Shown here: piece by piece, positions 1,136 to 23,641 of the stretch
How positions within the stretch are numbered: the stretch's first letter is position 1
How the letters are laid out: every line of letters starts with the position of its first letter
NCBI GenBank assembly: GCA_903911145.1
Contig: CAIWCD010000003.1
Coordinates: 642-64,641 of the forward strand
Length of the DNA stretch: 64,000 nucleotides
Direction: 5' to 3'
Source of the DNA: an uncultured delta proteobacterium
Lineage (GTDB): Bacteria; Myxococcota; Myxococcia; Myxococcales; 40CM-4-68-19
Translations under genes and position numbers: made by a program
Notes under the pieces: generated by a model
What the model was told of the DNA's origin: nothing
Databases searched by the model: none
Seen by the model: the letters and a program-made list of their open reading frames with translations, nothing else

Positions 1136-1208
1136 CGCCCCCCCAGTCGTGACTTGAGGCACACTGCGCGATGGAGGACCGAGTCGGGCGCAGCGGGCGA
1201 GAACGGCT

Positions 1209-1715
1209 TCAGGATGACTTCACCCGTCTTGTCAGCAGTTCGCGGAGCTGATCCGGTGCTGGCACCGCGCTCTTGGGAAGGAGCACGAGGGTGAAGCCGG
1301 AGCAGATGACGAATAAGTCCTTCAGCTCAAACCAGCGCTTGAAGTTCGACCACTCCAGTTGTGCTTGTCCGCGTGGTCCAGACGCGGTCAAGCCGGTTTC
1401 TGAGAGGTGATAGCTGATTCCCCTCTCGCAAAGCTCACGGATCACAGGGCCGTTGATCCCGGCGAAAGCAATTCCGAACGGGAGCAAGAGAACCGGGATG
1501 GCGCACGCCAGCCAGAGCTGAAACGGCAGATCCGAGAGCCTGAGCGCCGGAGCGTGAAGAGGAAGGGAAGCGCGATGCCGGCAGCGATTGCCAGTTGTGC
1601 CCACGTCGAGGCGAAATACAGCGTCAACCGTGCACGAATGATTTGGCTCTTGGTCGGTCGCGCTTCGATGTCCATCGATTCCTCGTTGGTTCCGGATAGC
1701 ACAGTGGTCCTGCAT
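1209..1715 (-). CDS. hypothetical small membrane protein (start ambiguous: 1715 or 1760)
   Basis: GC3-rich frame on the minus strand. A hydrophobic segment (LWLACAIPVLLLPFGIAFAGI) is followed by a charged C-terminus. The N-terminus runs into repeat unit A, so the start is unclear. No recognisable family. Confidence 0.4.
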   Translation of the reverse strand: MQDHCAIRNQRGIDGHRSATDQEPNHSCTVDAVFRLDVGTTGNRCRHRASLPLHAPALRLSDLPFQLWLACAIPVLLLPFGIAFAGINGPVIRELCERGISYHLSETGLTASGPRGQAQLEWSNFKRWFELKDLFVICSGFTLVLLPKSAVPAPDQLRELLTRRVKSS

Positions 1716-1716
1716 C

Positions 1717-1975
1717 GGGAACGTAATCGGTGGGCTGTTCGGTGCTTCCGCGAGCGTCACTCCCCTCGGGAAAAGGCGCGCCTGACAGGAGTCGAACCTG
1801 TGGCCCGCGGCTTCGAAGGCCGCTGCTCTATTGGCTGGGCTCGGGAATATCTCAGAACAGGAAGGCCGCGTTGGACGCGGGCTCTCGAATCTCAGAATAT
1901 TTGGCGCCAGGCTCGCCGCCTAAGTCCCAAATATTTCGGGAACGTAAAACGTAAGAGGAACGTAATCGAGGGGGT
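1717..1975. repeat. repeat unit A (long form): gggaacgtaa motif + tRNA-Arg 3' fragment (1775-1831) + ~140-bp extension ending in (g)ggaacgtaa..ggaacgtaatcga
   Basis: Positions 1775-1831 are identical to tRNA positions ~21-76 (ggcgcgcctgacaggagtcgaacctgtggcccgcggcttcgaaggccgctgctctat). The sequence then diverges from the tRNA (ttggctgggctcgggaatatctcagaac...). Units B and D share the same extension. Confidence 0.8.
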
Positions 1976-2058
1976 TGGAACGGGTCGCGCCCCCCCCCAG
2001 AGAGGCTGGCCCGCTGCCTCCCTTGACGACAACGTAGCCTACGGGATACATTGTTCTT

Positions 2059-2349
2059 GTGTTGGAAATTCGCAAAACTCAGGTCTTTGCCAGTTGGCTC
2101 GATGGGCTCCGAGACCTTCACGGACGCGCGCGAGTCCAGGCTCGGATCGAACGCCTCGCAGCAGGGAACGCCGGGGACGTGAAGCCGGTAGGCGAAGGCG
2201 TTTCCGAGATGCGGATCAAGACCGGGCCTGGCTATCGCGTCTACTTCATCAAGCGCGGGCGCGAGGTGATCGTTCTGTTAGCCGGCGGCGACAAGAGCAC
2301 GCAGCCCGCCGATATCGAGACCGCCAAGCAGCTCGCACGGAACCTATAG
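2059..2349 (+). CDS. type II toxin, RelE/ParE-superfamily 'addiction module killer protein' (HigB-like); GTG start
   Basis: The 96-aa product MLEIRKTQVFASWLDGLRD...DVKPVGEGVSEMRIKTGPGYRVYFIKRGREVIVLLAGGDKSTQPADIETAK matches the conserved killer-protein family that pairs with the downstream antidote. Confidence 0.85.
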   Translation: MLEIRKTQVFASWLDGLRDLHGRARVQARIERLAAGNAGDVKPVGEGVSEMRIKTGPGYRVYFIKRGREVIVLLAGGDKSTQPADIETAKQLARNL

Positions 2350-2357
2350 GAGCACTT

Positions 2358-2657
2358 ATGAGGAAGACGAAGACCACCACGACTAAGTACGACGTCGCCG
2401 AGCACCTTCGCACACCGGAAGAGATGGCGGCTTATCTGGAGGCGTGTCTCGAGGAAGCGGACGGCGACGCGGCCTTCATCGCGAAGGCGCTGGGGGACAT
2501 CGCGCGTGCGAAAGGCATGAGCCAAGTGGCGCGCGATTCAGGCCTGTCGCGGGAGAGCCTATACAAGGCGCTGTCGGGCGAACGCAGTCCCGACTTCGCC
2601 ACCATCCTTAAAGTCGTGGGCGCCCTGGGCTTGAAGCTTCACGCTGCGCACGGTTGA
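2358..2657 (+). CDS. type II antitoxin, 'addiction module antidote protein' (HigA-like HTH)
   Basis: The 99-aa product has DVAEHLRTPEEMAAYLEACLEE and a C-terminal HTH (MSQVARDSGLSRESLYKALSGERSPDFATILKVVGALGLKL). It lies 8 nt downstream of the toxin. A long Arg-rich upstream extension (ORF 1407..) was rejected. Confidence 0.85.
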   Translation: MRKTKTTTTKYDVAEHLRTPEEMAAYLEACLEEADGDAAFIAKALGDIARAKGMSQVARDSGLSRESLYKALSGERSPDFATILKVVGALGLKLHAAHG

Positions 2658-2661
2658 TCTG

Positions 2662-3225
2662 ATGGCTCATCACAAGCGGCGGCGGCCGAAGCACCAGCGA
2701 GCAGGTTGTCTACTCTGTAAGCCGTGGAAGGACGAGCGCGCGAAGAGCACGGGCTCGAGCGGTCACGTCTCGTTCAGCGTGTCCAATGCATCGACGTGCA
2801 TTACGGACATATCGAACGCGAGCTGCGAACAGACTGTCTCCACCATGCCGAGCAGCTGCGGGGGTGTACTTGTCGGCAAGTTGGCGAACGGCAGCGCCTG
2901 CCAGTTTGGTGTCGAGTGCGAGAGCACGCTCTGCCTGAACGAAACCAATGCGGGGACCAGCCTCGCGACGCCCGGAACCTGCGCAGCACAGGCATCCGCG
3001 GGGCAGGCCTGCACCCCACCTTTGTCAATGGATACCTGGGTCCAATACCGAACGCTGGGAGGCTCAATCTGCGCGGCGGGATCGTATCCGAGCACAGACA
3101 TCACGGGGACCGGCTCGGGCGCGCCGTGCACTTGTGTCGCGTTGACCTCGACCGGCACGGCATGCCCGGCCAGCACTCCCCTCGACGCGCAGACCTGCAG
3201 CTCGTTCTTCAATCCGCGGCAATAG
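2662..3225 (+). CDS. Cys/Thr/Ser-rich small protein with basic N-terminus (MAHHKRRRPKHQRAGCLLCKPWK), unknown function
   Basis: The frame has strong GC3 bias, low Arg content and 17 Cys. Competing frames (2724..3236 +, 2763..3494 -) are Arg-rich and antisense-like. There is no SD sequence, and the start is 4 nt after the antitoxin stop. There is no obvious signal peptide. Confidence 0.4.
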   Translation: MAHHKRRRPKHQRAGCLLCKPWKDERAKSTGSSGHVSFSVSNASTCITDISNASCEQTVSTMPSSCGGVLVGKLANGSACQFGVECESTLCLNETNAGTSLATPGTCAAQASAGQACTPPLSMDTWVQYRTLGGSICAAGSYPSTDITGTGSGAPCTCVALTSTGTACPASTPLDAQTCSSFFNPRQ

Positions 3226-3337
3226 TTCTGGAGTAGGGATCTCCAGGCGCGTCTTCCAGCCCGAGGAGGACGGAGCCATTCGTGCGCACGCTGCCTCGCT
3301 TGACAAAAGTGCCAGGGGGGGGGTAGCCGCCCGCGCC

Positions 3338-4642
3338 ATGCACAAACCCTCCCGACTTGTCTTCGCTGGGCTGCTCTCGTGCCTCGCGGTCGGCTCCGCC
3401 GCGAACAGCGCTCCCGTCGTGTCGTCGGGCACCGATGATTTCGCCGCTCTTGATGAACCCGAACCGAACGGCGTGAACACGCATTGCCAGACACTGCATG
3501 ACGTTCCCGTTGGCCGCCTCCGCCTCTTTTACGTGCGCGGGTTCGATGGCTTCTTCAAGATCTGGCTCCCTGAAGCAGCAGATTGGACGATCCAGTGCGA
3601 CCAAGGAGAGCTCTTCCACGCGCTCTCGAAGTCGCTTCGCCTCGAGGCGAACCTGCGCATGTATAAGCCGAAGCCAGGCGAGGACACATCACCAGCGAAA
3701 TATCTGGCGATGGTCGGCGCGCGGTTCAAGAACGGGATCGAGGCAAGTGGCGCGCGCGTGACCCATAGCGATGTCGCCGCGCTGACCCAGGGAGAGGATA
3801 ACGGCCCACTCGGCCTCGACATGACGATCGACGCGCCAGCGGGCCATTCGGCGCCGCTCTTCCCGCAAGATTCGTTCTACGCGACGCACGCCGGACCGGA
3901 TGGAGTGCAGTTCGACCTGCATCTCCGCGCCTATTTCCGCACTCCCGCGGAGCAGGCGCAGTTGCGCTTCAAGGCTCACATTGCGCTCACCTCGTTCATC
4001 GTCTCGGGAATCGATCCTTCGGCCGTCGCGAAAATGAATTCTGCCGCCGCGGAGATCGCAACTCCAAGTCGACCCCCGGCAGGATTCGCCGGCGTCTCGG
4101 CGACGAATTTCTCCGAGAAGACACTCTCTGCGATGAAGGCCGTGCTCGATTGCACGCGAGACGCAATGATGGCGCGCTATTGCGCAGCGCTCGATCGTTT
4201 CAGCGCCGCCAAGCCGCTCTCTCCCACGACGAGCGGCGCCTGGGCCGGCAGCACACTCGAGCTCGAAGCGGGGCGGAAGACCAAGATTTCCGACGTCGGC
4301 GAAGGCATTCACGCTCTCTACCTGAAGCAAAGCAAAGGCTCGTTCAAGTCCATGAGAGCCTCGAACGCCTCCGAGTCGGTGGACATGCACAAGGCTCTCA
4401 ACGAGCTGCACGCGGGGTACGCGCCAAGCCCGTCGGGCGGGCTGATGAAGCGCATCGTGGAGCTCACGCCGTCGGAGATGAAAGCGCTTGAGCAGAAGAC
4501 GGAAACCCTATCGTTCATCATCGAGGAGGATTCCGACAGTGTGACGCGCGCGTTCGTCCGCGAGAACGAGAAGGAGATCCTCGTCGTGGAGATCTGGGGG
4601 GACGGCTACGAGATGGAGGTAGGCATCTTCCCGAAGCCGTAA
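3338..4642 (+). CDS. secreted hypothetical protein (N-terminal signal peptide)
   Basis: The 434-aa product starts MHKPSRLVFAGLLSCLAVGSAANSAP, a signal-peptide-like N-terminus. The composition is protein-like. No recognisable domain. Confidence 0.6.
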   Translation: MHKPSRLVFAGLLSCLAVGSAANSAPVVSSGTDDFAALDEPEPNGVNTHCQTLHDVPVGRLRLFYVRGFDGFFKIWLPEAADWTIQCDQGELFHALSKSLRLEANLRMYKPKPGEDTSPAKYLAMVGARFKNGIEASGARVTHSDVAALTQGEDNGPLGLDMTIDAPAGHSAPLFPQDSFYATHAGPDGVQFDLHLRAYFRTPAEQAQLRFKAHIALTSFIVSGIDPSAVAKMNSAAAEIATPSRPPAGFAGVSATNFSEKTLSAMKAVLDCTRDAMMARYCAALDRFSAAKPLSPTTSGAWAGSTLELEAGRKTKISDVGEGIHALYLKQSKGSFKSMRASNASESVDMHKALNELHAGYAPSPSGGLMKRIVELTPSEMKALEQKTETLSFIIEEDSDSVTRAFVRENEKEILVVEIWGDGYEMEVGIFPKP

Positions 4643-4700
4643 CGCGGCAGTGCGCAAGAGCGTGCGAACGCCGCCAGCGTGCACCCTCCCCGAGGTAGAC

Positions 4701-4936
4701 GGGAACGCAACGGGAACGTAATCGTCGGTCCCGGAAGTCTTGAGAAAGGCGCGCCTGACAGGAGTCGAACCTGTGGCCCACGGCTTCGAAGGCCGCTGCT
4801 CTATTGGCTGGGCTCGGGAATATCTCAGAACACGAAGGCCGCGTCCGACGCGGGCTCTCGCACCGCAGAGTATCTGGCGAGAAGTTGGCCGCCTGGGTCC
4901 CGGATATGTCGGGAACGTAAGAGGAACGTAATCGGT
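4701..4936. repeat. repeat unit B (long form) with tRNA-Arg 3' fragment at 4748-4804
   Basis: It is bounded by gggaacgcaacgggaacgtaatcg on the left and gggaacgtaagaggaacgtaatcgg on the right. The tRNA fragment carries one mismatch (cccacggc). Confidence 0.8.
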
Positions 4937-4991
4937 GGAGGTTAGAGATACTCCGGAGAATATCCAGACAGACCGGACGAAGGAGGTTCGG

Positions 4992-5297
4992 TCATTGCCG
5001 CCCGCGCCAGTACCCTGGTCGACGGCGAACGTGTGCGACAGCGAGAACACGAAACTCGTCGGCTAACTCGACGAAGTACAACGCGTAGGGGAAGCGCTCA
5101 ACGGGGCAGCGACGGATACCAGTACTCGGCCTCACTCCCGGTGCCAGCGGGAACGAGCTGGGGCGGTCGGAGATCTGCTGGGCAGCGACACGAACCGCAT
5201 GGACAAGGTCGACTCCCAGGCCAGCGTTCTCTTCGTACCAGTCCTCAGCCGCGGACAGCTCTTCTTGGGCGGCTCGCGCAAGACGAACAGGCTTCAT
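4992..5297 (-). CDS. parE: ParE/RelE-family toxin
   Basis: The 101-aa product carries RFPYALYFVELADEFRVLAVAHVRRRP, the ParE signature. Its start overlaps the upstream antitoxin stop (ATGA at 5294-5297). Confidence 0.85.
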   Translation of the reverse strand: MKPVRLARAAQEELSAAEDWYEENAGLGVDLVHAVRVAAQQISDRPSSFPLAPGVRPSTGIRRCPVERFPYALYFVELADEFRVLAVAHVRRRPGYWRGRQ

Positions 5298-5536
5298 CGG
5301 CCCCCGCCGCGACGCTTGGCCTCAAGCTCGTCGCACGCGGTGTTAAGGTCGACACCCGCCTCGGCATGAACGTCACTCGCCCGTCGCTCCAGCTCCTGAG
5401 CCCACGCTGTTTCGACAGCGCCCGTGGGCTCGTCATTCGCCGCATCGAGACTGTCAATCAACTCGTGGATGATCTGACCGCGCTCGGAAACGGGCAACTT
5501 GAGCGCTTCCTGGAGGATCGCGGCGGCAGGAGACAT
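5294..5536 (-). CDS. small antitoxin ('putative addiction module component' family) partner of ParE
   Basis: The 80-aa product is MSPAAAILQEALKLPVSERGQIIHELIDSLD...AWAQELERRASDV. The ATG maps to cat at 5534-5536. The longer ORF up to 5791 is an Arg-rich extension and was rejected. Confidence 0.8.
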   Translation of the reverse strand: MSPAAAILQEALKLPVSERGQIIHELIDSLDAANDEPTGAVETAWAQELERRASDVHAEAGVDLNTACDELEAKRRGGGR

Positions 5537-5632
5537 GATGGCAGAATAACCCAGCCGCGCCCCCTCCGTCGAGTGCGGGGCCTGGGGAACTGTTCCGAGA
5601 AACCCAGTCCCGATAGAATTCCTGAGACGGGG

Positions 5633-5998
5633 ATGCCGATGCGAGCACTGAAACTGATCCGAACGAAGAGTGACTACGAGGAGGCTCTGGGTGAAGTGGA
5701 GCAGCTGTGGGGTGCGCGTCGCGGCACGCCGAAGGGAGATCGCCTCGACGTCTTGGCAACGTTGATCGACGTCTACGAGAACGAGCACCACCCGATCGAT
5801 CCTCCCGACCCGATCGACGCCATCAAGTTTCGGATGGAGCAGCAGGGGTTGGTGCGCAAAGACCTCGAGGGGATTATCGGAACGAGGACGCGAGTCGCCG
5901 AAGTGTTGAACCGGCGGCGACCGCTATCGATTGGGATGATCCGGCGGCTGCACGCGAAGCTTGGTGTGCCGGCAGAGATCCTGATCCACGCGACGTAG
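5633..5998 (+). CDS. higA: HigA-like antitoxin / XRE-family HTH regulator (no cognate toxin adjacent)
   Basis: The 121-aa product has an N-terminal HigA-type domain plus a C-terminal HTH (QGLVRKDLEGIIGTRTRVAEVLNRRRPLSIGMIRRLHAKLGVPAEILI). The architecture is the same as E. coli HigA. The start was moved to the internal ATG at 5633. Confidence 0.8.
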   Translation: MPMRALKLIRTKSDYEEALGEVEQLWGARRGTPKGDRLDVLATLIDVYENEHHPIDPPDPIDAIKFRMEQQGLVRKDLEGIIGTRTRVAEVLNRRRPLSIGMIRRLHAKLGVPAEILIHAT

Positions 5999-6067
5999 AG
6001 GCACCGAGAGCACTGACGAAGAAGACGAAGGCCAGTTCGCTCATCGGCTGTTCTGGGCAGCGCTCAG

Positions 6068-7504
6068 CTATCCATAGTTCGTGGGCAAGGCCGACCGATA
6101 CTCCTCAACGGCCCCACGCATGGCCCAACCCGCCGACCCGATCTCAAGCGCACGCCCGAGGAGTACGTCTGCCTCTCTGTGCTCCCCTTGATTGGCAAGT
6201 TGCTCCGCAAGATCGGCGAGGCTGCCCGCGTGCTGGTCCCGGTTGAAATTCGGGAGAGAGACCGAGACTCGCATTGAATCGATCGCTTCTGCGAATCTGC
6301 CAAGGTCGACGAGTGCGCGCGAACGCCAGTAGGGAGCGCGTTGGGAGTCCGGAGCTATCGTCACAAGTTCTTCTACCGCGACGAGCGCCGCCTCGTTCTC
6401 GCCGGACCGGCGCAGTGCCACAACCCTGTTTCCCGCCGCATTCTCGTCATCACTCTCGCCTTGTGTATTTGACGTACGCCGGATGAGCTCCTGCGCCGCC
6501 TCAAGAAAGTCCTCGTTGTGCTCGATTCGCGTCGATTCGCTCTTCGCGAGGAGCATCGATTCAATCTGTTTCCACTTCTTCGGCGCGGGAACGGTGACGC
6601 GCGAGAAGGCATCATCGACCGGTTTCACGAAGGCCTTCATCGCGATTAAGAACTGAGAAGCTGGTATCGCTGCCCAATCACCGTTCCCTGATTGCAGCGC
6701 GACAAAGTCGGCGTTCGGAAGCAGGCACTCCTCGCGAGGTAAATAGCAGGTGAAATGCGTATCTGCCTGCACACGCCTCAGCGCCGCGATATCGGCAATC
6801 GTCGGCGTGAGCAGCGTGGCAAGCGGCATATGCGGCAGCGGACGAAGCAGAGGGAGGAGCGCACTCGTGAAGAGCGGTCTGATGGGCAGCGCGGCGAGCC
6901 CTGGATCCTGCGCTGCGACGAGAGCCTCAGCGAAACGATGGCCGTCACCGCTGCGGAATGGGGACGTTTCGAGAAGCGCGCGATCTGCAAACACTCGAGC
7001 CAAGAACCCTTCACCAACCGCAGTGGCATGATGAGGTCCAGAGAATAGGAAGAGACTGTTGCGCGCGACCTCCGGCTCGACTTTGTCCCAGAACATCTCG
7101 TCGTTCTGAATGTCGTGCCAACCTCGAGGCCACGCACGAACCTGCTTGGGAGTGAAATACTGGCCAGGTCTTCCCGGCGGAAAGCCCGTTGGCGCGCTTG
7201 GCGCTGTCAACTCGTCCCAGGTCCCCGGCGGATCCTCCTCGACATCGACGGGAACTCGGTGCCTCGCGGCCCAGGCTGTCGCTAAGTCAACCGCGAGCGA
7301 AACGTCATCATTCGAAGCGAAAACAGGGATACGAATCCGCGTGCCGTCCTCAGTATCGTCGAAGAAGACGCCGCGGGACGGATTCCCGCGCCAGGCGAGC
7401 CAACTCCGCAATCCGCGCAGCCGAACTGGTTTGTACGAGACGGCACTGTCTCGCAAGAACTGTGGCTGCGCCGCAATGCCCGGGATGAGAAAGCTGTAGC
7501 TCAC
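6068..7504 (-). CDS. hypothetical protein (478 aa), helical/TPR-like C-terminus
   Basis: A long GC3-biased ORF that ends 28 nt before repeat unit C. No family is recognised by eye. Confidence 0.6.
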   Translation of the reverse strand: MSYSFLIPGIAAQPQFLRDSAVSYKPVRLRGLRSWLAWRGNPSRGVFFDDTEDGTRIRIPVFASNDDVSLAVDLATAWAARHRVPVDVEEDPPGTWDELTAPSAPTGFPPGRPGQYFTPKQVRAWPRGWHDIQNDEMFWDKVEPEVARNSLFLFSGPHHATAVGEGFLARVFADRALLETSPFRSGDGHRFAEALVAAQDPGLAALPIRPLFTSALLPLLRPLPHMPLATLLTPTIADIAALRRVQADTHFTCYLPREECLLPNADFVALQSGNGDWAAIPASQFLIAMKAFVKPVDDAFSRVTVPAPKKWKQIESMLLAKSESTRIEHNEDFLEAAQELIRRTSNTQGESDDENAAGNRVVALRRSGENEAALVAVEELVTIAPDSQRAPYWRSRALVDLGRFAEAIDSMRVSVSLPNFNRDQHAGSLADLAEQLANQGEHREADVLLGRALEIGSAGWAMRGAVEEYRSALPTNYG

Positions 7505-7531
7505 TTGTTGTCTCCAGACTTGGAGTCGATC

Positions 7532-7628
7532 GGGAACGTAACGGGAACGTAATCGGAGGGCTCGCGGGCGTTTCCGACCCGGTGCAAAGGCGCGCCTGAC
7601 AGGAGTCGAACCTGTGGCCCGCGGCTTC
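7532..7628. repeat. repeat unit C (short form): gggaacgtaacgggaacgtaatcg + flank + tRNA-Arg 3' fragment 7589-7628 ending in anticodon-loop position
   Basis: Identity to the tRNA stops at ...cccgcggcttc, then gives way to unique sequence. Confidence 0.8.
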
Positions 7629-7673
7629 TTGCGGTTGTCCCATTCCTCATCGGGTCTAACCGTTGCAAGGCGG

Positions 7674-8816
7674 TTAGCCTTTGCGACCTAATATCCTCGA
7701 CCAGAAGCTCGGCGTCTTCTCCTCAGCGCCTGGCTCCATATTTTTGCGCGGAAGCATGACAGCCGACTCGGCGTTTATCTCGAATGCAGCGTCGGCGCCT
7801 TCGCCGGCAGCATCCCCCTCATTGTCACCGTCATCCGCATCCTCGGGCCAGCCGATCTTGATAAGGCAGAACGTGCCATCTTCCCCGCGCGCGCCAGCGA
7901 TCGACGTGTTGCCATCACCGCCCATCCCCGCGACGTACCCCCGCCCGAGGATGTCTCCGCCTTCCTCCATCTTGCGGCGATACCGGCGATCGGCGCAGAT
8001 CTCCTGATCGGCGACGTGGAGCGAGCCGCCCTCGACAGGAACCTCTCCGAGCGGCTCGAGTTTCGCCAGCAACTCGACAACTCGCCCAGCCGCGTCACGG
8101 GTCAGAACAAGGTGCTCGTACGCTTCATTATTGTTGCGAAAGAGCGCGAACCACTCGCCACTCGGGCACGGTGCGATCACGTTGAGAAAGAGGTTCTCCT
8201 CCAGCGCGGATTCAGACTCGCCGCTCGGGTACTCGCCAATCGCGAGCTTTCCGCTGAAGACTCGAAATGAGCCTTCAGTCTCCCAGCCGGGGGGCGCTGT
8301 TGAGAGCGGCTCAATTGGCCCGTCGTCGTCGCGATCCGGCGCTTGGTACCCAAACGCGGGCTGGCCCTTGTGCAGCTGGCCGCGCAGTGTGCCCTTCTTC
8401 TTCTTCAGCGAGAGAGCCAGCTCCGGCAGCAGTAGATCTTCGAGCTTGTTGAGTGCGAGGAGCTGCGTCTCCTCTGGCTTCGAGACGCGATAGAGCTGCT
8501 GCAGGATCGCTGCTTGCTCGTTAGGCGTGCCGGATCGCAGCGCCATCTGCAGATCAAGATACTGATCGCCCCAATCACGGACATCGGGCTCGCCACTCTT
8601 CTGCATCAGTAGCTTGTGCACGTCGTTCGCGGTGTCGCGGTCCATGGCCGGACGCAGCAGCGCATCGAGCTTCTCCACCTTGATCTCGACGACGTCAGGA
8701 CGGTCATCTACCGTGGCGAGCTTCCATCGATCGCCTTCAGTGGACGTCACGGTACACAAGCCGAATCCACGGACAACGACTGCCTCGCCGACCTTCACTG
8801 AGTTCGCGATCGCCAT
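7674..8816 (-). CDS. CarD/CdnL/TRCF-family RNA-polymerase-interacting domain protein fused to unknown ~230-aa C-terminal region with acidic tail
   Basis: The N-terminal 150 aa (VKVGEAVVVRGFGLCTV...VEIKVEKLDALLRPAM...VRDWGDQYLDLQMALRSGTPNEQAAILQQLY) align by eye to CdnL/CarD N-domains. The C-terminus is acidic (EDADDGDNEGDAAGEGADA) and lacks AT-hooks. Confidence 0.7.
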   Translation of the reverse strand: MAIANSVKVGEAVVVRGFGLCTVTSTEGDRWKLATVDDRPDVVEIKVEKLDALLRPAMDRDTANDVHKLLMQKSGEPDVRDWGDQYLDLQMALRSGTPNEQAAILQQLYRVSKPEETQLLALNKLEDLLLPELALSLKKKKGTLRGQLHKGQPAFGYQAPDRDDDGPIEPLSTAPPGWETEGSFRVFSGKLAIGEYPSGESESALEENLFLNVIAPCPSGEWFALFRNNNEAYEHLVLTRDAAGRVVELLAKLEPLGEVPVEGGSLHVADQEICADRRYRRKMEEGGDILGRGYVAGMGGDGNTSIAGARGEDGTFCLIKIGWPEDADDGDNEGDAAGEGADAAFEINAESAVMLPRKNMEPGAEEKTPSFWSRILGRKG

Positions 8817-8899
8817 GTAGAATCCTCCAAAACAAACGGGCGATAGGAACCCCGCCCGCTACGCTGCTCGAACGAGTCGAACAATCGCACGCATTCCTC

Positions 8900-9146
8900 G
8901 AGGAACGTAACGGGAACGTAATCGATGGGCGTGAGGACGTTTCCGACCCGGTACAAAGGCGCGCCTGACAGGAGTCGAACCTGTGGCCCGCGGCTTCGAA
9001 GGCGGCTGCTCTATTGGCTGGGCTCGGGAATATCTCAGAGCAGGAAGGCCGCGTCGGACGCGGGCTCTCGCACCGCAGAGTATCTGGCGAGAAGTTGGCC
9101 GCCTGGGTCCCGGATATGTCGGGAACGTAAGAGGAACGTAATCGAA
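8900..9146. repeat. repeat unit D (long form) with tRNA-Arg 3' fragment at 8958-9014
   Basis: Same structure as units A and B. ORFs 8859..9200 and 8925..9443 lie entirely within the repeat and are spurious. Confidence 0.8.
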
Positions 9147-9196
9147 GGGGTTGGACGGACTCCGGATAAACTCGGAGGCAGCCAAAGTGACTCGCT

Positions 9197-9604
9197 TCAC
9201 GCAGGCTTCAGCACGAAGTCTCTACCGGTCACGATAGAAAGGAGCTTCTGTAGCTTGTCGACAGTAGGAACGGATGCGCCTTGCTCGTACCGGGCGTACG
9301 CATTCCTCGACGACTGCCCGAGCCGTTTCGATACCTCGGCCAACGACAGACCGTGCGCCTCTCGCTGCCGACGCAACATCAGCGCAGTGAGGGTAGCAGT
9401 ATCGGAAGATCCAACCTCGATCGACTCCCCCGCGAGGCCGTAAACCATCGCTCGAAACCCCTTCTGATCGGTGAGGGACTCGATCGCGTCAACGATCATA
9501 GCAAGAGCCTCCTTGCGAGATCGGCCTTGCGTCATCAAGTCCAGCATCGGTACTTCGACGAGCCAGAACTTGCCGTCCTTCCAGACGCGTCCTTCGAACC
9601 TCAT
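9197..9604 (-). CDS. hicB: HicB-family antitoxin
   Basis: The 135-aa product MRFEGRVWKDGKFWLVEVPMLDLMTQGRSRKEALAMIVDAIESL has the HicB N-domain and a C-terminal DNA-binding region (LSLAEVSKRLGQSSRNAYARYEQG). It overlaps hicA by 4 nt. Confidence 0.8.
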   Translation of the reverse strand: MRFEGRVWKDGKFWLVEVPMLDLMTQGRSRKEALAMIVDAIESLTDQKGFRAMVYGLAGESIEVGSSDTATLTALMLRRQREAHGLSLAEVSKRLGQSSRNAYARYEQGASVPTVDKLQKLLSIVTGRDFVLKPA

Positions 9605-9774
9605 TTGGCACCTGCCTTCTTCAAGATTTTCCGAGCGAGAAGCTCGTTGATTTCCGCGTGACGAGGGATCGGCTCTTCCTCTTTCCCGTTGGTCCAGATG
9701 TCATGGTTCCCGCCGTGACGAAGGAAGTGCCATCCAGCTTGGGTGAGCTTTCGCTCGAGTTCTCGCCTCTTCAC
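9601..9774 (-). CDS. hicA: HicA-family toxin (GTG start)
   Basis: The 57-aa product VKRRELERKLTQAGWHFLRHGGNHDIWTNGKEEEPIPRHAEINELLARKILKKAGAK is HicA/YcfA-like. The GTG maps to cac at 9772-9774. The longer ORF to 9894 was rejected. Confidence 0.75.
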   Translation of the reverse strand: MKRRELERKLTQAGWHFLRHGGNHDIWTNGKEEEPIPRHAEINELLARKILKKAGAK

Positions 9775-9964
9775 GGAAGCAGTGTACACGGATCGGTGTT
9801 CACCTACAACCAGGAACCACCGAACCGCCGTCGAGAGCAGGGCTCGGGACGGCGGGGCTGTCGGGACCGAGCGAGTTGCCCACGAGGGAAACACAACGTC
9901 GTCGGGTCGGCGGCGACGGCTGGTCAGTACTCAACCCGATACCGAGAACTAACACTCTAACTGG

Positions 9965-10014
9965 ACGGGAACGGGGGCAGGTCAACAGGAGTCGAACCTG
10001 TGGCCCGCGGCTTC
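9965..10014. repeat. repeat unit E (degenerate short form) with tRNA-Arg fragment 9986-10014
   Basis: Contains gacgggaacgggggcag followed by caggagtcgaacctgtggcccgcggcttc, then diverges. Confidence 0.65.
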
Positions 10015-10031
10015 TTGCTGGCCGCTTGCTT

Positions 10032-10634
10032 CTAATCCCCCCTCACTTGAACGTCTTTGAACTGTTCGCTCGCAGCCAACGCAGCGCGAATCGCTTCGAC
10101 CAGCGACCGGAACTCGCTGGATGCCCGACGAGGCGGCCTGGTGTCTGGCGAGAGCTTCCGCACGAGGAGCGGCGCAGCGAAGATGACGAGAACCGCCATG
10201 ACAAGCATTCCAATCAGGAACGACCAGAACCAGCGCATTGCTAGCGCTGCACCGTGCATCCCGTGACCTCCGCGAACCCCGAAGATGCACGCACCGAGCA
10301 TGGCAATGCAGACCGCCCCAGCGAATATGGAATTGACGATGAGTCCATGGGCGCGACTTGGCCTTGCCTCCTCGGTGACCTCGATATTCCAGAGCAGGGA
10401 TCGGGGCAGGGTCTGACTCTGGAGTGTCGTGGCCAACCAGATGCTCTGCGTCGCGCCAGCGGCGGTGCGGGTTGCTTGCCAGCCAAACTCTTCGCCGTCA
10501 TGCACGGGTTCAACCGTCCAACTGCTCCTGCCGTCGACAAGCAGCGCATCGATGAGTGTCAACTCCTCGAGTTGCGCCCATTCCATCACCGACGGCGGAG
10601 TCAGGCTGGTCGCGCGGAATGATCTCGAAGACAT
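10032..10634 (-). CDS. hypothetical membrane protein (~200 aa, two or more TM helices)
   Basis: The start was moved to the ATG at 10632-10634, just outside repeat F. TM segments include IVNSIFAGAVCIAMLGACIFGV and WFWSFLIGMLVMAVLVIFAAPLLV. Confidence 0.55.
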   Translation of the reverse strand: MSSRSFRATSLTPPSVMEWAQLEELTLIDALLVDGRSSWTVEPVHDGEEFGWQATRTAAGATQSIWLATTLQSQTLPRSLLWNIEVTEEARPSRAHGLIVNSIFAGAVCIAMLGACIFGVRGGHGMHGAALAMRWFWSFLIGMLVMAVLVIFAAPLLVRKLSPDTRPPRRASSEFRSLVEAIRAALAASEQFKDVQVRGD

Positions 10635-10643
10635 CGTGCTCTC

Positions 10644-10740
10644 GGGAACGTAACGGGAACGTAATCGGTGGGCTCGCGGGCGTTTCCGAGCTGATGAAAA
10701 GGCGCGCCTGACAGGAGTCGAACCTGTGGCCCGCGGCTTC
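10644..10740. repeat. repeat unit F (short form) with tRNA-Arg 3' fragment 10701-10740
   Basis: Contains gggaacgtaacgggaacgtaatcggtgggctcgcgggcgtttccga and the tRNA 3' part down to the anticodon-loop position. Confidence 0.8.
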
Positions 10741-10868
10741 GGCGTGGCGACATCTCGCCTGGCCACAACTCCGAGGAGCTGGCTCGTGGTTGACTGGACT
10801 TCGAGTATTCGTTTCTCGATCAACGCCCCAACTGGTCCCGGCACGCGGAGTTGACGGCTGCGACGCAG

Positions 10869-11801
10869 CTACTCCGGGTCCGACGTCTTCCGCGCAAGTT
10901 GAGCAAGCTGCTGTTCGTTCACGCGACCACTGTCGAGGTTGAACTCCAACTCGACTGCGAACCGAACCTGAGTGACGTCGGATCTTCTGCCTCCCTGAAC
11001 GAATTCGATGAAGGCAGGTGGCCGCGACGGTGCACCGCCTGTGGATAGCTCGGCGAAGCAGGGCGAGACGTAGCCGTTCGTCGCGAGTTCGACGTAGCCA
11101 AAGCGTGCGTCGCGCGCGATGACGCCCTCGGTGATCCGTCGGAGATCGAGATACTGCACCTTCCAAGACGAGTCGTCACCCCAGTAGCAACCCCATACGA
11201 AGCCGAAATCGCCCACAGGCCACTCGTGTCGAGCGTCCCAGTATTCACTCCCGGGGATGATCGAGTCGTCGTGCAGATCCCACCAGTCCGGAACGTAGAA
11301 GCCGACTGGACAGAACCCGCTCCCGGGCGTCTCTTCTGTCTCCTCTGCGATCACTTCACCCGAGGCCAGGTCGAGGACTGCTGTCCTTGTATAGTCGCGT
11401 GAGATAAGCGCGAACTCCCGATTCCCTCGACGGAACGGCTCGAACGTCTGCAGCGTTGAGTAGTTGCGTTCGTAAGCGCAGATCTGCTCAGGCTCCTTCC
11501 CTGGCAGACGGCGAAAGACCTCGACGAGGGAAGAAACCCATTCGCCGGACGCCTTGGATCGGTTTGTATCTCGGACGAGGTAGCGGTCGCGTGGTTTCGA
11601 GCGTGACGGGATCTCGAAGTCCGTCTCGACAACGTGCTCGCGAATGACGAAGCCCTTGTCGTGCCGCGCGGCCCAGTTCTGTGCAGCAAGCTTTACGACT
11701 GCGGCCTCGGCTTTCTCGCGGGAGTAATACGCGCCGAAGTAGGCGTCCGTCTCGCGGCCGCCGTGTATCCCGTACACCCGAAAGATCACGTCGCCGCGCA
11801 T
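10869..11801 (-). CDS. hypothetical protein (310 aa), Trp/Tyr-rich, no recognisable domain
   Basis: A GC3-biased ORF. Its translation is not Arg-rich, unlike the antisense frames. Confidence 0.55.
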   Translation of the reverse strand: MRGDVIFRVYGIHGGRETDAYFGAYYSREKAEAAVVKLAAQNWAARHDKGFVIREHVVETDFEIPSRSKPRDRYLVRDTNRSKASGEWVSSLVEVFRRLPGKEPEQICAYERNYSTLQTFEPFRRGNREFALISRDYTRTAVLDLASGEVIAEETEETPGSGFCPVGFYVPDWWDLHDDSIIPGSEYWDARHEWPVGDFGFVWGCYWGDDSSWKVQYLDLRRITEGVIARDARFGYVELATNGYVSPCFAELSTGGAPSRPPAFIEFVQGGRRSDVTQVRFAVELEFNLDSGRVNEQQLAQLARKTSDPE

Positions 11802-11931
11802 TCGCGCATCATAGACAGAAGCGATAGGAAAGTGAACGCGCCTTGACGGGAGTCATGCAGTCAAATTTTCGCCGGGAACGTAACGGGAACGTAATCGGTG
11901 GGCTCGCGGGCGTTTCCGACCCGGTGAAAGG

Positions 11932-12005
11932 CGCGCCTGACAGGAGTCGAACCTGTGGCCCGCGGCTTCGAAGGCCGCTGCTCTATCCAGCTGAGCTACA
12001 GGCGC
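11932..12005 (-). tRNA. tRNA-Arg (anticodon TCG), intact
   Basis: Manual cloverleaf fold: 7-bp acceptor GCGCCTG/CAGGCGC, D-stem GCTC/GAGC, anticodon stem GCGGC/GCCGC with loop CTTCGAA (anticodon TCG, C35, A20), T-arm ACAGG-TTCGACT-CCTGT, G73. The 3' flank (11874-11931) carries the gggaacgtaacgggaacgtaatcg motif shared by all repeat units. Confidence 0.9.
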
Positions 12006-15138: not shown

Positions 15139-18100
15139 TTATCGGCCGAGCACCACCGCAGCGCTCGCTCCGCCGTAATTGGTGATCGCGATGTCCGGCT
15201 TTCCGTCGCCGTCGAGATCCCCGACGGCGACTCCGATCGCAACGCTCGAGCCCACAGGATATTGCGACGCGCCGGAAAAGGTTCCATCTCCGACGCCATA
15301 GAGAATCGAGAGGCTGCCGCTCGCAACCACGAGATCGGGCTTACCATCTCCATTCATATCCTTCACTGCAATCGCCGAGGGACCGGAGCCGACCTGGTAT
15401 GTCGCGGGTGACGCATTCACGAATGTGCCGTGGCCCGTGCCGAGCAGAATCGAAACCGTCGCATCGCCGCTGTTGCAGACCGCGAGATCGGGTTTCCCAT
15501 CGCCATTCAGATCGGCGATGGCAACGCCCATTGGAGCGGCCCCGACCGGATAGAGCGTGACACTCGGGAAGGTTCCATCGCCATTGCCAAGCAGGACCGA
15601 GATCGTCTGATTCCCCGACGCGCCACCGCCGCTGTTCACCACCACGAGGTCGAGCTTTCCATCGCCATTCAGATCGGCAGCCTCGACGGAGACCGGCCAG
15701 TTTCCTTGCGTGGCATAGCTGACCGCAGACGCGAAGGTTCCGTTTCCATTCCCCAACAGAATCGACAGACCTTCATTATTGCCATTCACGTTCACCACCG
15801 CGAGGTCACTCTTTCCGTCGCCATTGAAATCACCGATCGTGATTCCGGTTGGCGTGACCGGCACGGTGTATTTCACCGCAGGAAAATAGGTTCCATTCGA
15901 CCGGCCCAGGAGTACCGACACGGACTGATCGTTGTAATCACTCACCGCAAGATCAGGGATCCCATCGCCATTCAGATCTCCGACGGCAACGCCCGAGGGA
16001 ACGGCGCCGACCGCAGCGTTCACTGCGGCCGCGAACGTACCATCACCATTTCCATGCAGAATCGAAACGCTGCTGCTGTTGGAGTTGGCGACAACCAGGT
16101 CGAGCTTTCCATCGCCATTCAGGTCGGCCATCGCCAGCGCGTCCGGCGCGGAGCCGGTTGCGAAACTGGAGACCGTCGCGAAGGTGCCGTGGCCTTCACC
16201 GAGCACGACAGAGACGATATCCACGCCATGATTCGCGACAAGAAAATCCATCTTCCCATCACCGTTGATATCCGCGAGGGCAACTGAATAGGGCCGAGGC
16301 CCGGACGCGAGCACCGCGGCTGCGCCGAACGTTCCATTCCCCACGCCGTCGAGCACGGAGATATCTCCATTGAACTCATCGGCGACAACCAGATCGGGAA
16401 CGCCGTCGCCGTTCATATCCGCGATTGCAATCGACCAGAGCACACCCTGGACGGTGTAATCGACCGCATCGGTCACCGTACCGTCTCCACGGCCACGCAG
16501 GACAGAGACGGTATTGCCCTGCTGGTTCGCGACGGCGATATCGGGGATACCATCGCCATTCAGATCGGCAATCGCGATCGACATCGGAGTATTGCCAACG
16601 GGATGGGTCACCTGCGCGGCGTATCCCCCTGCCCCATCGCTGATCAAGATCGAGATGGAATTATCGGCCGAGTTCGCGACGATGATATCGGGGATTCCAT
16701 CCTCATTCAGATCCGCGAGCGCGACTGCGTCCGGCGATCTCCCGACGGGAAAGGGGCCGATATAGTTGAACGGCCCGGTTCCCGCGATACCCTTGAAGAT
16801 GACGACGTTGTTATCGCCGGAATTCGCCACCACGATATCGCTGATGCCGTCGCCGTCGATATCTCCCGCCGCGACCGCGACGCCGCCATTTCCGCTCGTC
16901 GACGTGATCGCGCCGGAGAAGGTGCCGTCGCCGCGACCGGAGAGGAACGAAAAGTCGCCGCTGGCACCTTCCACGGCCACCAGATCGAGCTTGCCGTCGC
17001 CGTCGAAGTCGCCCGCCACAAGCTGCATCGGCGTTCCATTGACCGCGAGGCTTGAGGCCGCGAAGAACCTTCCGTTGCCTTCACCGAGCAGCACAGCGAG
17101 CGTCGGTTGCCCCGCGTTGGCGACGACCGCGTCGGGCTTACCGTCGCCGTTGAAATCGGCCACCAGCACGGCCGAGGGAGACGAGCCGACGCGTTCAGAG
17201 AGCGGCGCGGCGAGCGAACTCTCGCAGGCGGCGGGTTCCTGGTTGAGCAATACCGAGACGGAATTATTGGATAGATTCGCGAACACGATATCGAGCTTCC
17301 CGTCGCGATTCACGTCGGCCACGGTCATCGCCGTCGAATCGCTCACGGGATAGGTGACGGGAGCAGCAAATCCGCCACCAGCAAGGCCGAGCATCACCGA
17401 AGCACCGGCGATGAGATCGGGAATACCATCGTGGTTCATATCCGCGATTGCGGCCGACTGCGGAAAGTTCCCCGACGGGTAATCGATATGGGCCTGGAAC
17501 GTTCCATCTCCGTTGCCGAGGAGAATCGAAACCGTGTTGTCCGAGGCGTTCGAAGCGGCAATGTCGGGCCTGCCGTCACCATTGATATCCCCGATGGTGA
17601 CCGCCTGAGAGAACGAACCGACCGCATAGTTCACCGCCTGCCCGAACGAACCGTCGCCGCGGCCGAGGAGGACGGAGACGTTGTGGGTCGAGCGATTGAC
17701 GACCACCGCGTCGAGCTTGCCATCGCCGTTGAGATCGCCCAGGACGACCGACTGCGACGCGCCTCCAGCGGTGTCGAAGTTGGTCGCGGCCGCGAACGTG
17801 CCGTCGCCGCGGCCGAGCATCACGGAGAGCGTGTTGTCGTAGAAGTTGCAGACGACGAGATCGGGCTTGCCATCATTGTCGAGATCTCCGATCGCCACCG
17901 ATTCCGGTCCGTTGCCGGCTGCGTAGTTGACGGCCGCGGCAAGACCGCCATCGCCCAGACCGAGAAAGACCGAGACGTTGTTGCCGGTGTTGTTGGCGGT
18001 GACGACATCGAGCTTGCCATCGCGGTTCAGATCGCCCAGCGCGAGTCCGAATGGAAACGTTCCCGCGTCATACGAGGCGGCCAGGCCGAAGGAGCCAGTG

Positions 18101-21100
18101 CCGTCGCCGAGCAGCACGGAGATGTTGCTGCTGTCGCTGTTGGTTGCGACGAGATCGGGCTTTCCATCGCCGTTGAGATCGCCGACCCGAACCTGGCGCG
18201 GCTTCGCGCCGGCACCGTAAAGCGCCGCGGTTGCGAATGAGAGTCCGTCGGCGACCGCGATGTTGGTCGAGGCCTGCGTCGCGCTTCCGAACTGCCCGTC
18301 GATCGCCGCGCGCACGCGCAGCGAGACGCTGGCATTGGTGTGCGGGCCGAAATCGGACGTCGTGTTCCAGAGGAAGGTGTGCGCGACTCCCGCCGGACTC
18401 GTCGTCACTCCAGAGACGCCTGCGCTCGCTCCCAACGCGCTTCCACTCTGCGTCGCACGCGGGTATGGCCCGACGCCGGCGAACCCGTTTCCCGAAGCGT
18501 CGTACTCGATGATGACGTCGACCGGCCACGACTGCCCCTGGCTCACCGTGTAGCTGATCGGCGCGCAGCCGCTCGCGCTGTTTCCCGCGACGGCGAAGCT
18601 CGCGACGTGCGGCGGCCCGAGGATGAACAGAGGGTTTCCACTCGTCGCCAGGCCACCCGGCGTCGTCACCGCGATTGTTCCACTCGTCGCCCCCGCAGGG
18701 ACGGTCGTGCGGATCTGCGTCGCGCTGTCGATGGTGAATGACGTCGCCGAGGTGCCGTGGAACGAGAGCACCGTCGCGCCGCTCAAGTGCGTGCCGTTGA
18801 CGGTGATCGGTGCGCCGACGGGAAGAGCGCTCGCGCTGAAGCGAGTCAGCGATGGCGAAGGAGTGCCGCCGCCCGAACCGCCTGCGCTGCCGCCGCCGGC
18901 CCCGCCGCCACTGCCTCCCCCCGGGCTTCCGCCGCCCGAACCGCCTCCGCTCCCGCCGCCCGGATTCGCCGCGATGAACTTCACGCTGGTCGAGACGGTG
19001 AATGCGTTCTGGCCCGCGCCGATGGTGGCGACGACCGTCTTGCTCTCCGCATCGGTGGAGACGAGCGACGAATCGAACAGCCCCGTCGGGTCGGTCGCTC
19101 CGCCGGCAGGCGTGAATGTGTCGTCCTTGCCGTTCTGCGCGTCGATGATCGAGAGCTGGACTGGCCAATTCCCGACGACGTTGAGGAACCGATCGCAGGC
19201 AGTCACAACGAGGAGCGCGGCGCTGCTCCCGTCAGCGGGGAATGTCTGCCCCCCGTTCGTGCAGATGACGCTTGAGCAGTTCGCAGACGGAGGACCAGCA
19301 ACAAACGGGGCGCTCGCTGTGGCGACGAACGACGAGCTGCCGCTTGCGAGGAGTAGCTCACTCTGCGCCTGAATCACGTTGTCGCCCGCCAGCGTGCTCT
19401 TCACCTCAGAGACGAAGAGCCCGTTCAGATCGGTCACGCCCAACGCTTGCGCGACGCCATTGCTCAGAGAGTCGGACACGAGCACGAGCTGCCCGCTCGC
19501 CGGATTTCCCTGCGCGTCCTCGAGTTGCACGGTCACGGTGTAGTGCGACGAACCATCGGCGATGACCGGACTGCTCGAGCCGGTCACCGTCATGTGCGAT
19601 CTGCTCTGGTCGGGAGGACCGGCGACGAACGTCACCGCCGCAGTCGCGTTGCTCGCCTGCGCGATCGCCGAGACGATCTTGGTCTCCGCCGTCGTCGAGG
19701 AGAGCGTCGCGCTGAAGCTGCCGTTGACGTCCGTGATGCTGCTGATCGTGTTCTTGCCGTTCGCGGCGAAGCTGTCGTGCGCGCCGCTCGCGTTCAGCGT
19801 CACGGCCATTCCAGACACCGGAGTTCCGCTCGCGCTCTTCACCTGCGCGGTCACGACTGCGGTCGCGACTCCATCGGCGACGACCTGCGTGGGCGAGGCG
19901 GAGAGCGTGAGTTGCAGTGAGCTCGCGGTCGGCGTGAAGACGACGGTCGCGCTCGCGATCGCGCTGCTGGCTCCCGCCAGCCCCACGGAAACCGTCTCGC
20001 TCTGCGCCGTCGCCGAGGTGAGCAGAGCGATGAAGATGCCGCCCGCGTTGGTCTGGCCGCTCACCGTGCTGCCGCTATGACCTCCAGCGGAGAACGTGTT
20101 GCCCGTACCGCTCGCAGAGAGCGTCACCGATTGGTTCGCAATCGGATTTCCATTCGAATCGGAGAGCACGACCAGGAGCGAGATGGTTCCGCCGGCCGAC
20201 ACGCTCGACGGGCTCGCGCTGATCGACGATTGAGTCGCGCTCGCCGTACCTGCAATGAAGCTGATGGCCAGAGACGCGGTGAGCGCGCCCGCACTTGCCG
20301 TGACGATCTCGACGCCTGCGCGCCGAGACGAGAGCGCGAGGGAGAACTGGCCCGACGAATCGCTCGTACCGCTGCTGGTCGCGTTCGCGCCATTGCCGCT
20401 CGTGCCCAGCGTGATCGCCTGATTCGCGATCGCGTTGCCGGCCGTGTCCTGCAGCGTCGCCGTCACGGTCGTGGTGGTGCTCCCATCGGCGATGAGCTGG
20501 CTCGGCGATGCCGTGATCGTGAGTCGCTCACCGCCCGGCGAACTGGAGAACGAAACAGGCGCAGAGACGAGCGCACTCGACGCGTTGCCGAGCGTCGCGA
20601 ACACGGTCTCGTTCTGCACCGCGGATGACGTGAGCTGCGCGATGAAGAGCCCGCCGAGATTGGTGCTGCCGCTCACCGTGGCGCCGCTGGCGCTGCCGGC
20701 GTGAAAGGTGTTCGCGGTCCCGGTCGCGGAGAGTGTGAGCGGCTGGCCGGCGAGCGGATTTCCATTCGCGTCGGCGACGATCACCAGGAGCGACACGGTC
20801 CCGCCAGCGGAAACACTCGGCGGACTCACCGTGATCGACGACTGCGTTGCGCTCGCAGGTCCCGCGATGAAGGTCACCACTGTCGACAGCGTCGAAGTGC
20901 TCGCGCCCGCGCCCAGCGTGGCCGTGACGATCTTCGTCTCCGCGCGCAGCGACGCCAGGCTCGCGTGGAATGCGCCGTTCGCGTCGGTCGTCCCACTGCT
21001 GGTCACGCCCGCGTCAGCCTCGCCCGGCGCGAAGAGATTCTCACTGCCGGAGACGCTCAGTTGCACGGTCGCGCCAGAAAAGACGTTGCCGTCGAGATCG

Positions 21101-23582: not shown

Positions 23583-23641
23583 ACCGGACGAGGCGCCTGG
23601 GTTGACGGCTCGTTCGCGAGGGAGGAGTCTCGTCACTCACG

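Follow-up and report, generated by a model that had tools for sequence, protein, structure and literature searches.

A 64,000-nucleotide stretch of DNA from an uncultured delta proteobacterium (GenBank assembly GCA_903911145.1, contig CAIWCD010000003.1; here the window) carries, downstream of its transfer RNA (tRNA) gene tRNA-Arg(TCG), a tandem array of small gene cassettes separated by partial copies of that gene. The array was probably built by accretion, that is, by repeated site-specific integration at the tRNA by a lambda-type tyrosine integrase which would cross over in the anticodon loop and use tandem GGAACGTAA repeats as arm-type sites. As such it is a compact example of the known pile-up of mobile elements at one tRNA gene. 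Unusual features are the density of sites, the tiny cassettes, arm repeats that stand out by their tandem arrangement, the link to an uncharacterised integrase family of soil bacteria and the absence of any integrase debris.

The tRNA-Arg(TCG) gene is the sole tRNA of the window (ARAGORN; 70.1 bits with the Rfam tRNA model). Its T-arm 22-mer ACAGGAGTCGAACCTGTGGCCC occurs seven times, always on the same strand, at 1785, 4758, 7599, 8968, 9985, 10711 and 11940, where chance would give none. Six of the seven units open with GGCGCGCCTG, 10 nt before the 22-mer; the unit at 9985 lacks these 10 nt. Beside the intact gene, six co-oriented copies of its 3' part divide the region from 1.7 to 11.9 kb into cassettes of 0.6–2.7 kb, the smallest of 623 bp with one gene, giving seven sites within 10 kb. 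The seven cores form direct repeats in which 30–57 nt are identical, or nearly so, to the 3' part of the tRNA, and all partial copies lie downstream of its 3' end. Partial tRNA copies accumulate at that position when elements integrate into a tRNA gene. In composition, too, the array stands apart, with a G+C content of 61.7% against 65.5% for the rest of the window and a lower third-codon-position G+C (GC3) in its genes.

A sequence-only reading of this DNA had reported seven co-oriented copies of the tRNA-Arg 3' region, small cassettes between them, a cargo rich in toxin-antitoxin (TA) genes and no recombinase in any unit. These observations were borne out: the starts of the copies match, the cassettes measure as given above, and neither a recombinase nor a remnant of one was found in the whole 64 kb. 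The arms of the units, the second arms of the three long units and the degenerate unit at 9985 were not fully described in that reading.

These arms give the units the appearance of integrase attachment (att) sites. An arm of ~58 nt, opening with the 11-bp direct-repeat pair GGGAACGTAAC GGGAACGTAAT, adjoins six of the seven units on the side opposite the tRNA body. Across the 64 kb there are nine copies of the 12-mer GGAACGTAATCG, all in the array, against an expectation of 0.3, and the arm motif is present in six of the seven P' arms and three of the seven P arms. In the long units u1, u2 and u4 (Table 1), the tRNA-like segment corresponds to Rfam tRNA positions 9–63 and is followed by ~110 nt of common sequence and then by a second motif pair, GGGAACGTAAGAGGAACGTAATCG. 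Because this second pair sits on the other side of the core, the long units read arm-core-arm, like an attP. A lambda-type attP is a core with flanking arm-type Int sites, and the arm-core-arm layout would be expected of an internal P-O-P' junction between tandem elements.

The boundaries of the cores are equally informative. In u3, u5 and u6, identity to the tRNA ends directly after GGCTTC, within the anticodon loop, and it ends in that loop also in a related-strain unit (L016) and in the junctions L051, L058 and L060 described below. Williams reportedly described the anticodon loop in 2002 as a classic crossover sublocation of tRNA-targeting tyrosine integrases. With the degenerate u5 excluded, identity of the arms to that of u7 drops distally, from 93 and 92% to 85, 68 and 67%, a gradient that would fit newer insertions adjoining the tRNA. 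As for a role of the arm as tRNA terminator or cassette promoter, a site scan put no terminator-like or promoter-like site in it. Terminator-like hairpins were seen inside two of the long units, on the minus strand, as CCGCGTCCAACGCGG in u1 (1866–1880) and CCGCGTCGGACGCGG in u2 (4839–4853), each followed by a T-containing tail when read in the tRNA direction; they could insulate the cassettes from read-through, or could be a protein binding site.

The arm motif also occurs beside a particular family of tyrosine integrases. A scan for the double motif GGAACGTAANNGGAACGTAA across species-representative genomes gave 12 single matches, about the number that we estimate for chance, of which L004 alone was informative. 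In this locus, from an Acidobacteriota metagenome-assembled genome, TGGAACGTAAA TGGAACGTAAA stands between the stop codon of a tyrosine-integrase open reading frame (ORF) and the 3' end of tRNA-Ala(CGC). Integrases of this type are ~400 aa long and combine PF14659 with PF00589; the family gave 560 matches, one labelled Terriglobales. At L004 and two further loci, L043 and L044, the integrase stop codon lies 3–15 nt before TGGAACGTAA(A) TGGAACGT(A/G)A, with the 3' end of tRNA-Ala(CGC) 33–43 nt on; at L043 and L044 the motif is 10–15 nt past the stop codon and 33–34 nt before the tRNA. The motif-to-tRNA geometry of the window is the same, with a gap of 32 nt. Motif and geometry are common to the window sites and to these three integrase-bearing loci.

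Elsewhere in the family the motif changes and its position is kept. Locus L045 has GGAAGCAAAC GGAAGCAGAAAC in place of the arm motif, and members on viral contigs (39–52% identity) have the tandem motifs GGTTCCAAT, GGTCCCAAT, GGAACCAAA, GTTTGGTCTT and TGCTGACAAA at the arm position. These are followed by 3' halves of tRNA-Ala or, in our own reading of the fragments, of a tRNA-Phe(GAA)-like gene, which end at the anticodon loop. A tandem 9–11-bp repeat lies ~3–15 nt from the integrase stop codon in L004, L043–L045, L051, L053–L055 and L058–L060, and a tandem motif, GGAACGTAA or another, occupies the arm position in 10 integrase-bearing loci. Because the motif differs from element to element, the repeats belong to the element, and to judge from their sequence and placement they behave like arm-type integrase binding sites. 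Relative to the integrase gene, either orientation of the tRNA part occurs.

Tandem junctions are found in this family as well. At L051, an integrase gene, its arm and a partial tRNA-Ala ending at the anticodon loop are followed by a defence-type element that is unrelated, and no tRNA within 10 kb is intact. Since this is a tandem junction, tandem accretion does occur among PF14659+PF00589 elements. The integrase of L004 (3258–4599) is itself a C-terminal remnant of 235 aa, with stop codons throughout all three upstream frames. Decay in the family thus leaves visible debris, unlike in the window cassettes. Within 8 kb of the integrase-bearing loci L044 and L045 no distal att site was found, and viral contigs scanned with arm, core or long unit as query gave chance matches in coding regions or nothing. 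Two phage contigs, L017 (2090–2150) and L018 (7140–7190), have intergenic clusters of GGAACGTAA-like repeats; no tRNA was found there and no search for an integrase was made, and the clusters are probably unrelated regulatory repeats.

Comparison with relatives, which the sequence-only reading had proposed as a check, revealed that cassette content differs between them. One metagenome scan with arm plus core as query returned two contigs. L015 and L016, from sister samples, are 92% identical to window positions 10447–10741, which cover the start of the cassette-2 gene and u6, and continue past the core into a different cassette. This begins with an excisionase-type HTH_17 gene (E = 2.7e-13), followed by ParE/Phd, Unstab_antitox, MazE-like and Schlafen/AlbA_2 genes. 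In a third relative, L024, the neighbour gene product is 79% identical, tRNA-Arg and arm are kept (91%), and the DNA past the arm is unrelated. Two of the three breakpoints seen between the window and its relatives coincide with unit borders; the third, at ~10447, falls inside the cassette-2 gene, from which it follows that general recombination also shapes the array. Synteny through homologues of the neighbouring 4HB_MCP gene was of use only for the 79% identical case, since homologues at 56–57% adjoin kdp genes without a tRNA and do not mark orthologous loci.

L015 and L016 also differ from each other. They share the att unit, the HTH_17 gene and the Unstab_antitox gene, and the gene beside the antitoxin is a ParE-like toxin in L015 (1480–1884; 77% nucleotide identity to window 4996–5381) and a MazE/AbrB-like gene in L016 (920–1543). 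The TA partner gene thus appears, from these two contigs, to have been swapped within a population.

We searched for a recombinase at several levels. Pfam, PHROGs, NCBIfam and PADLOC identified none among the cassette proteins, and the 25 of 33 matched Pfam families listed for a further 24 window ORFs included no integrase, resolvase or transposase. A profile hidden Markov model (HMM) of full-length integrases from the PF14659+PF00589 family (41 sequences) gave a best E-value of 0.97 against the six-frame translation of the 64 kb, and tblastn against the window was negative. Among sequences in the PDB, nothing recombinase-like matched the 380-, 434- and 478-aa proteins. As the cassettes are almost entirely coding, they leave no room for integrase debris.

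These results bear on whether the array is a fossil, in which successive conventional islands each brought an integrase that was later deleted, nothing is mobile any more, and strain differences reflect general recombination anchored on the ~100-bp units. The degenerate u5, the diverged arms of u1 and u2, the breakpoint inside a gene, the lack of an integrase in 64 kb and the decayed L004 integrase, which attests that such decay happens in the family, are all consistent with this. On the other hand, deletion has left no trace that the six-frame HMM or tblastn could detect, in cassettes with hardly any non-coding DNA to hold one; four arms remain 85–93% identical with both motif copies intact, and the other two breakpoints lie exactly at the unit border. 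We regard a fossil of this kind as unlikely. Nor is there a sign that the cassettes derive by deletion from an integrative and conjugative element (ICE), an integrative and mobilizable element (IME) or a prophage, as no module remnants were found, nearly all of the DNA is coding, and the cargo is unrelated.

In the accretion scheme that we favour, the integrase would belong to the PF14659+PF00589 family, or to one with a related arm-binding domain, and would bind the arm motif. Each incoming circle would bring an attP in which the tRNA 3' half lies between a P side and a P' arm. Integration would rebuild the tRNA and push older insertions, with their partial tRNA copies, further downstream; because each round rebuilds the gene and displaces what was there, internal junctions would read P-O-P' like an attP. 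The cassettes would be non-autonomous, in the manner of cis-mobilizable elements (CIMEs), having kept their att sites without encoding an integrase; with arms intact, they may have been born integrase-less or may have lost the gene by clean deletion. For excision, reshuffling or loss at the present day, another part of the genome or an incoming element would have to provide a cognate integrase in trans, probably together with an Xis-type factor.

Several observations weigh against this scheme. No cognate integrase was found within the 64-kb window, which extends 1.1 kb to the left of the array, nor did any integrase-bearing element turn up at tRNA-Arg(TCG); the integrases with the GGAACGTAA arm target tRNA-Ala(CGC) instead. 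Apart from the att sites, the cassettes have no homology to integrase-bearing elements. The L015/L016 breakpoint within the cassette-2 gene does not lie at a unit. The arms of u3, u6 and u7 are 91–93% alike within the window and 82–83% identical to that of L024, a similarity that gene conversion could explain as well as recent insertion. Finally, a diverged arm persists past the most distal core, u1, where host DNA would be expected at a terminal attR.

Cargo and layout raise the further question of how far the array resembles an integron. Three TA pairs were recognised by Pfam: a Gp49/HigB-like toxin with an HI1420-type antidote, ParE with Unstab_antitox, and HicA with a helix-turn-helix antitoxin (HTH_3/HTH_31) at the HicB position. 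TA modules directly adjoin the second arm of all three long units, and plausibly stabilise the array. There is also an orphan HTH_3/HigA-like gene, and of the proteins of 187, 310, 380, 434 and 478 aa four have no family match, the 478-aa protein matching only by its C-terminal TPR repeats. The N-terminal sequence of the 434-aa orphan suggests that it may be secreted. Cassettes 1, 2 and 4 consist of a single ORF co-oriented with the tRNA, while cassettes 5 and 6 have four genes each, those of cassette 5 on both strands. Promoter-like sites precede the 310-aa and HigB genes.

The sequence-only reading had called the array integron-like, and offered two explanations for the missing recombinase: service in trans, or an undescribed mechanism of cassette capture at tRNA-derived sites. 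Small, single-gene, co-oriented cassettes (0.6–1.3 kb for cassettes 1, 2 and 4), cargo rich in TA genes as in chromosomal integrons, and four orphan proteins without a family match speak for the second. A dedicated platform with an undescribed recombinase or capture mechanism is, in our assessment, very unlikely. The sites have the full att anatomy of an ordinary tyrosine integrase, and share their arm motif with an integrase family of known type; cassettes 5 and 6 each hold several genes, which together occupy both strands; no hairpin attC was noticed, although no formal attC search was made; and the 380-, 434- and 478-aa proteins carry no recombinase signal, the 310-aa orphan being modelled as beta-rich and propeller-like. 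With no intI or attI, no hairpin attC, and two four-gene cassettes with their own promoter-like sites, the likeness to integrons is one of analogy. A new capture mechanism is not needed, and of the two explanations we favour service in trans, to which the tyrosine-integrase att anatomy of the units and the arm motif beside a specific integrase family both point. The accompanying premise, that a tRNA island brings an integrase of its own, leaves out of account two known cases, tandem accretion and CIMEs that have no integrase (PMC5704250, PMC3146451, bioRxiv 10.1101/2020.12.28.424599).

The 310-aa orphan was considered as a novel recombinase and rejected. It belongs to a family of at least 841 proteins of ~310 aa, ~60% identical across Planctomycetota (Fimbriiglobus, Pirellulales) and Verrucomicrobiota; some 70 residues are invariant, among them a WGCxWGDDxSWK block, and Pfam recognises no domain. 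Its AlphaFold2 model (predicted local distance difference test score, pLDDT, 82.8) is confident and beta-rich, with only weak beta-propeller matches in the PDB, and the genomic contexts of its homologues lack tRNAs and integrases. Defence systems were likewise rejected as cargo, since the one PADLOC match was of the orphan HigA-like gene, by its HTH, to PD-Lambda-2_B (positions 1–120 of 402). Within that gene, 69 nt (5787–5855) are 88% identical to HigA on 36-kb plasmids of Photobacterium damselae, a host of very different G+C content; the plasmid HigA follows a HigB, and the orphan has no HigB before it. Megablast against plasmids and phages gave matches to this conserved 69-nt HigA segment and to the tRNA, and to nothing else.

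The source is a metagenome assembly, related populations carry other cassettes at the same unit, and a contig of the k = 31 type in Logan breaks at the units. An assembler might accordingly have strung in series the cassettes of co-existing strains that share a flanking repeat. The longest exact repeats between units, however, are 88, 60 and at most 52 nt, below usual reads and large k-mers, so that reads of 150 nt can resolve the unit order. In addition, the variant flanks are peculiar to each unit, for every cassette protein that was looked up there are five contigs on record, up to 162,581 bp long, and an independent Logan contig (L001) is 100% identical over 1830–4772. We consider such an artefact extremely unlikely.

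Several known systems resemble the array in part. According to the passage on CIMEs and accretion in PMC5704250, which refers to Pavlovic 2004 and Bellanger 2011, Streptococcus thermophilus islands related to ICESt1 and ICESt3 keep attL and attR, have no integrase or transfer genes, and are mobilised by the integrase of another element. The array cassettes likewise retain att sites, and neither integrase nor transfer genes were found in them (library scans, HMM, tblastn and the 310-aa model). They differ in number (six or seven), in their very small size, and in having no remnant of a parent element; moreover, they come from an uncultured bacterium of soil or peat, would involve another integrase family, and show no conjugation context.

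In Dehalococcoides, more than 12 direct repeats of the ssrA 3' end delimit tandem, strain-variable islands, some of which lack an integration module and have been proposed to be CIMEs (McMurdie et al. 2011, PMC3146451). As in the array, the repeats lie downstream of the gene from which they derive, there a single-copy RNA gene, and mark off islands that stand in tandem. The Dehalococcoides target, however, is tmRNA, with a 20-bp repeat, a crossover in the T-loop and the serine recombinase DsiB, and the islands are larger, most of them (16) still with an integration module. In Prochlorococcus, tycheposons that inserted successively at one tRNA have only partial tRNA copies between them, newer ones pushing older ones into the island, where partial tRNAs and degraded elements are scattered throughout (Hackl et al., bioRxiv 10.1101/2020.12.28.424599). 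The partial tRNA copies of the array have the same look of serial integration at a tRNA. Tycheposons, in contrast, carry distinct tyrosine recombinases and leave fragmented integrases as remnants, neither of which the array has, while conspicuous tandem arm repeats are a feature of the array att sites.

With chromosomal integrons the array shares a series of small cassettes, often with TA or orphan genes and each bounded by a recombination site, which a single recombinase could excise and reinsert as circles. It differs in lacking intI, attI and Pc, in having some multi-gene cassettes with promoter-like sites of their own, and in its sites, which are tRNA-derived duplex att sites with direct 11-bp arm repeats rather than folded attC hairpins. 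The likeness to a lambda-type attP is closer, with a core formed by the 3' part of a tRNA and bounded in the anticodon loop, direct repeats ~30–130 nt to either side, and an excisionase-type HTH_17 gene adjoining the site in a related strain. Unlike such an attP, the array sites are unaccompanied by an integrase, and their arms are predicted binding sites of an integrase N-terminal domain.

As a clean and dense case of a tRNA-linked variable island assembled from integrase-less pieces, the array is tied to a previously uncharacterised family of ~400-aa tyrosine integrases of soil Acidobacteriota, whose element-specific tandem repeats after the integrase stop codon can be read straight from sequence. 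The resulting signature (integrase stop codon, tandem 9–11-bp repeat, tRNA 3' half ending at the anticodon loop) can serve to delimit elements and orphan att sites in metagenomes. Were the cassettes mobile in trans, their relation to integrative elements would parallel that of miniature inverted-repeat transposable elements (MITEs) to insertion sequences, and they would explain strain-level turnover of TA and orphan genes beside tRNA genes. A bolder proposal is that the array is a living, integron-like platform, built of tRNA-derived tyrosine-integrase att sites, in which an integrase from elsewhere acts on single-gene cassettes down to 0.6 kb, each with a complete or partial attP, so that they are individually excised, reordered and lost, or captured at tRNA-Arg. 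We judge this improbable; if it were true, such 'miniature integrative elements' would be a distinct and widespread class of non-autonomous mobile DNA in soil bacteria.

Table 1. Features of the tRNA-Arg(TCG) array, listed from the tRNA outwards (window coordinates).
Feature	Position	Strand	Basis
tRNA-Arg(TCG), intact; tRNA-proximal att site (B-O); 3' 40 nt are the common core	11930–12005	-	ARAGORN, Rfam
u7 arm, directly downstream of the tRNA 3' end; tandem 11-bp GGGAACGTAAC GGGAACGTAAT; putative P' arm-type integrase site	11872–11929	-	
Cassette 1: one 310-aa gene (10869–11801); promoter-like site 11836–11808	10745–11871	-	
Unit u6, short: arm 10642–10700, tRNA 3' core 10701–10741	10642–10744	-	
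Cassette 2: one 200-aa membrane protein gene (10032–10634), borderline Holin-X match	10019–10641	-	
Unit u5, degenerate: 30-nt core, no acceptor 3' strand, no arm	9985–10018	-	
Cassette 3: HicA toxin (9601–9894) and HTH antitoxin at the HicB position (9197–9604)	9156–9984	-	Pfam
Unit u4, long, attP-like: arm, tRNA-like segment (model positions 9–63), ~110 nt, second arm motif GGGAACGTAAGAGGAACGTAATCG (low to high)	8899–9155	-	
Cassette 4: one 380-aa gene (7674–8816), weak CarD-like and AAC(3)-like similarity	7633–8898	-	
Unit u3, short: arm 7530–7588, core 7589–7628	7530–7632	-	
Cassette 5: ParE (4992–5297, -), Unstab_antitox (5294–5536, -), orphan HigA-like HTH (5633–5998, +), 478-aa TPR protein (6068–7504, -)	4946–7529	both	
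Unit u2, long, attP-like: arm motifs on both sides; core with 1 mismatch to the tRNA	4700–4945	-	
Cassette 6: HigB/Gp49-like (2059–2349), HI1420-type antidote (2358–2657), Cys-rich 187-aa protein (2662–3225), 434-aa orphan (3338–4642)	1980–4699	+	
Cassette 6 promoter-like site	2023–2052		
Unit u1, long, attP-like, most distal; diverged arm 68% identical to u7, single motif copy	1716–1979	-	
YcxB-like gene, past the last unit	1209–1760	-	

The array is flanked by a 4HB_MCP protein gene on the other side of the tRNA and, past u1, by the YcxB-like gene, which either was next to the tRNA originally or is a seventh cassette with a lost distal att site. Between it and the next gene, which ends at 1135, there is no tRNA fragment. 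That next gene (1–1135, +), cut off by the left edge of the window, codes for the C-terminal portion of an FG-GAP_2 repeat protein and contains five DNA repeats with a period of 207–219 nt. Its G+C content is 58.2%, below even that of the array, and for this reason the foreign region may reach past the left edge of the window.

Beyond the tRNA, the window contains three giant ORFs: 15139–23127 (-), of 2662 aa with internal repeats spaced ~150–300 nt; 37441–44004 (+), of 2187 aa; and 43988–51556 (+), of 2522 aa. DUF7793 was matched by five of the 24 scanned window ORFs. These matches are probably five adjacent small ORFs (120–174 aa) at 23142–25427 (+), which would make them a cluster of tandem paralogues.

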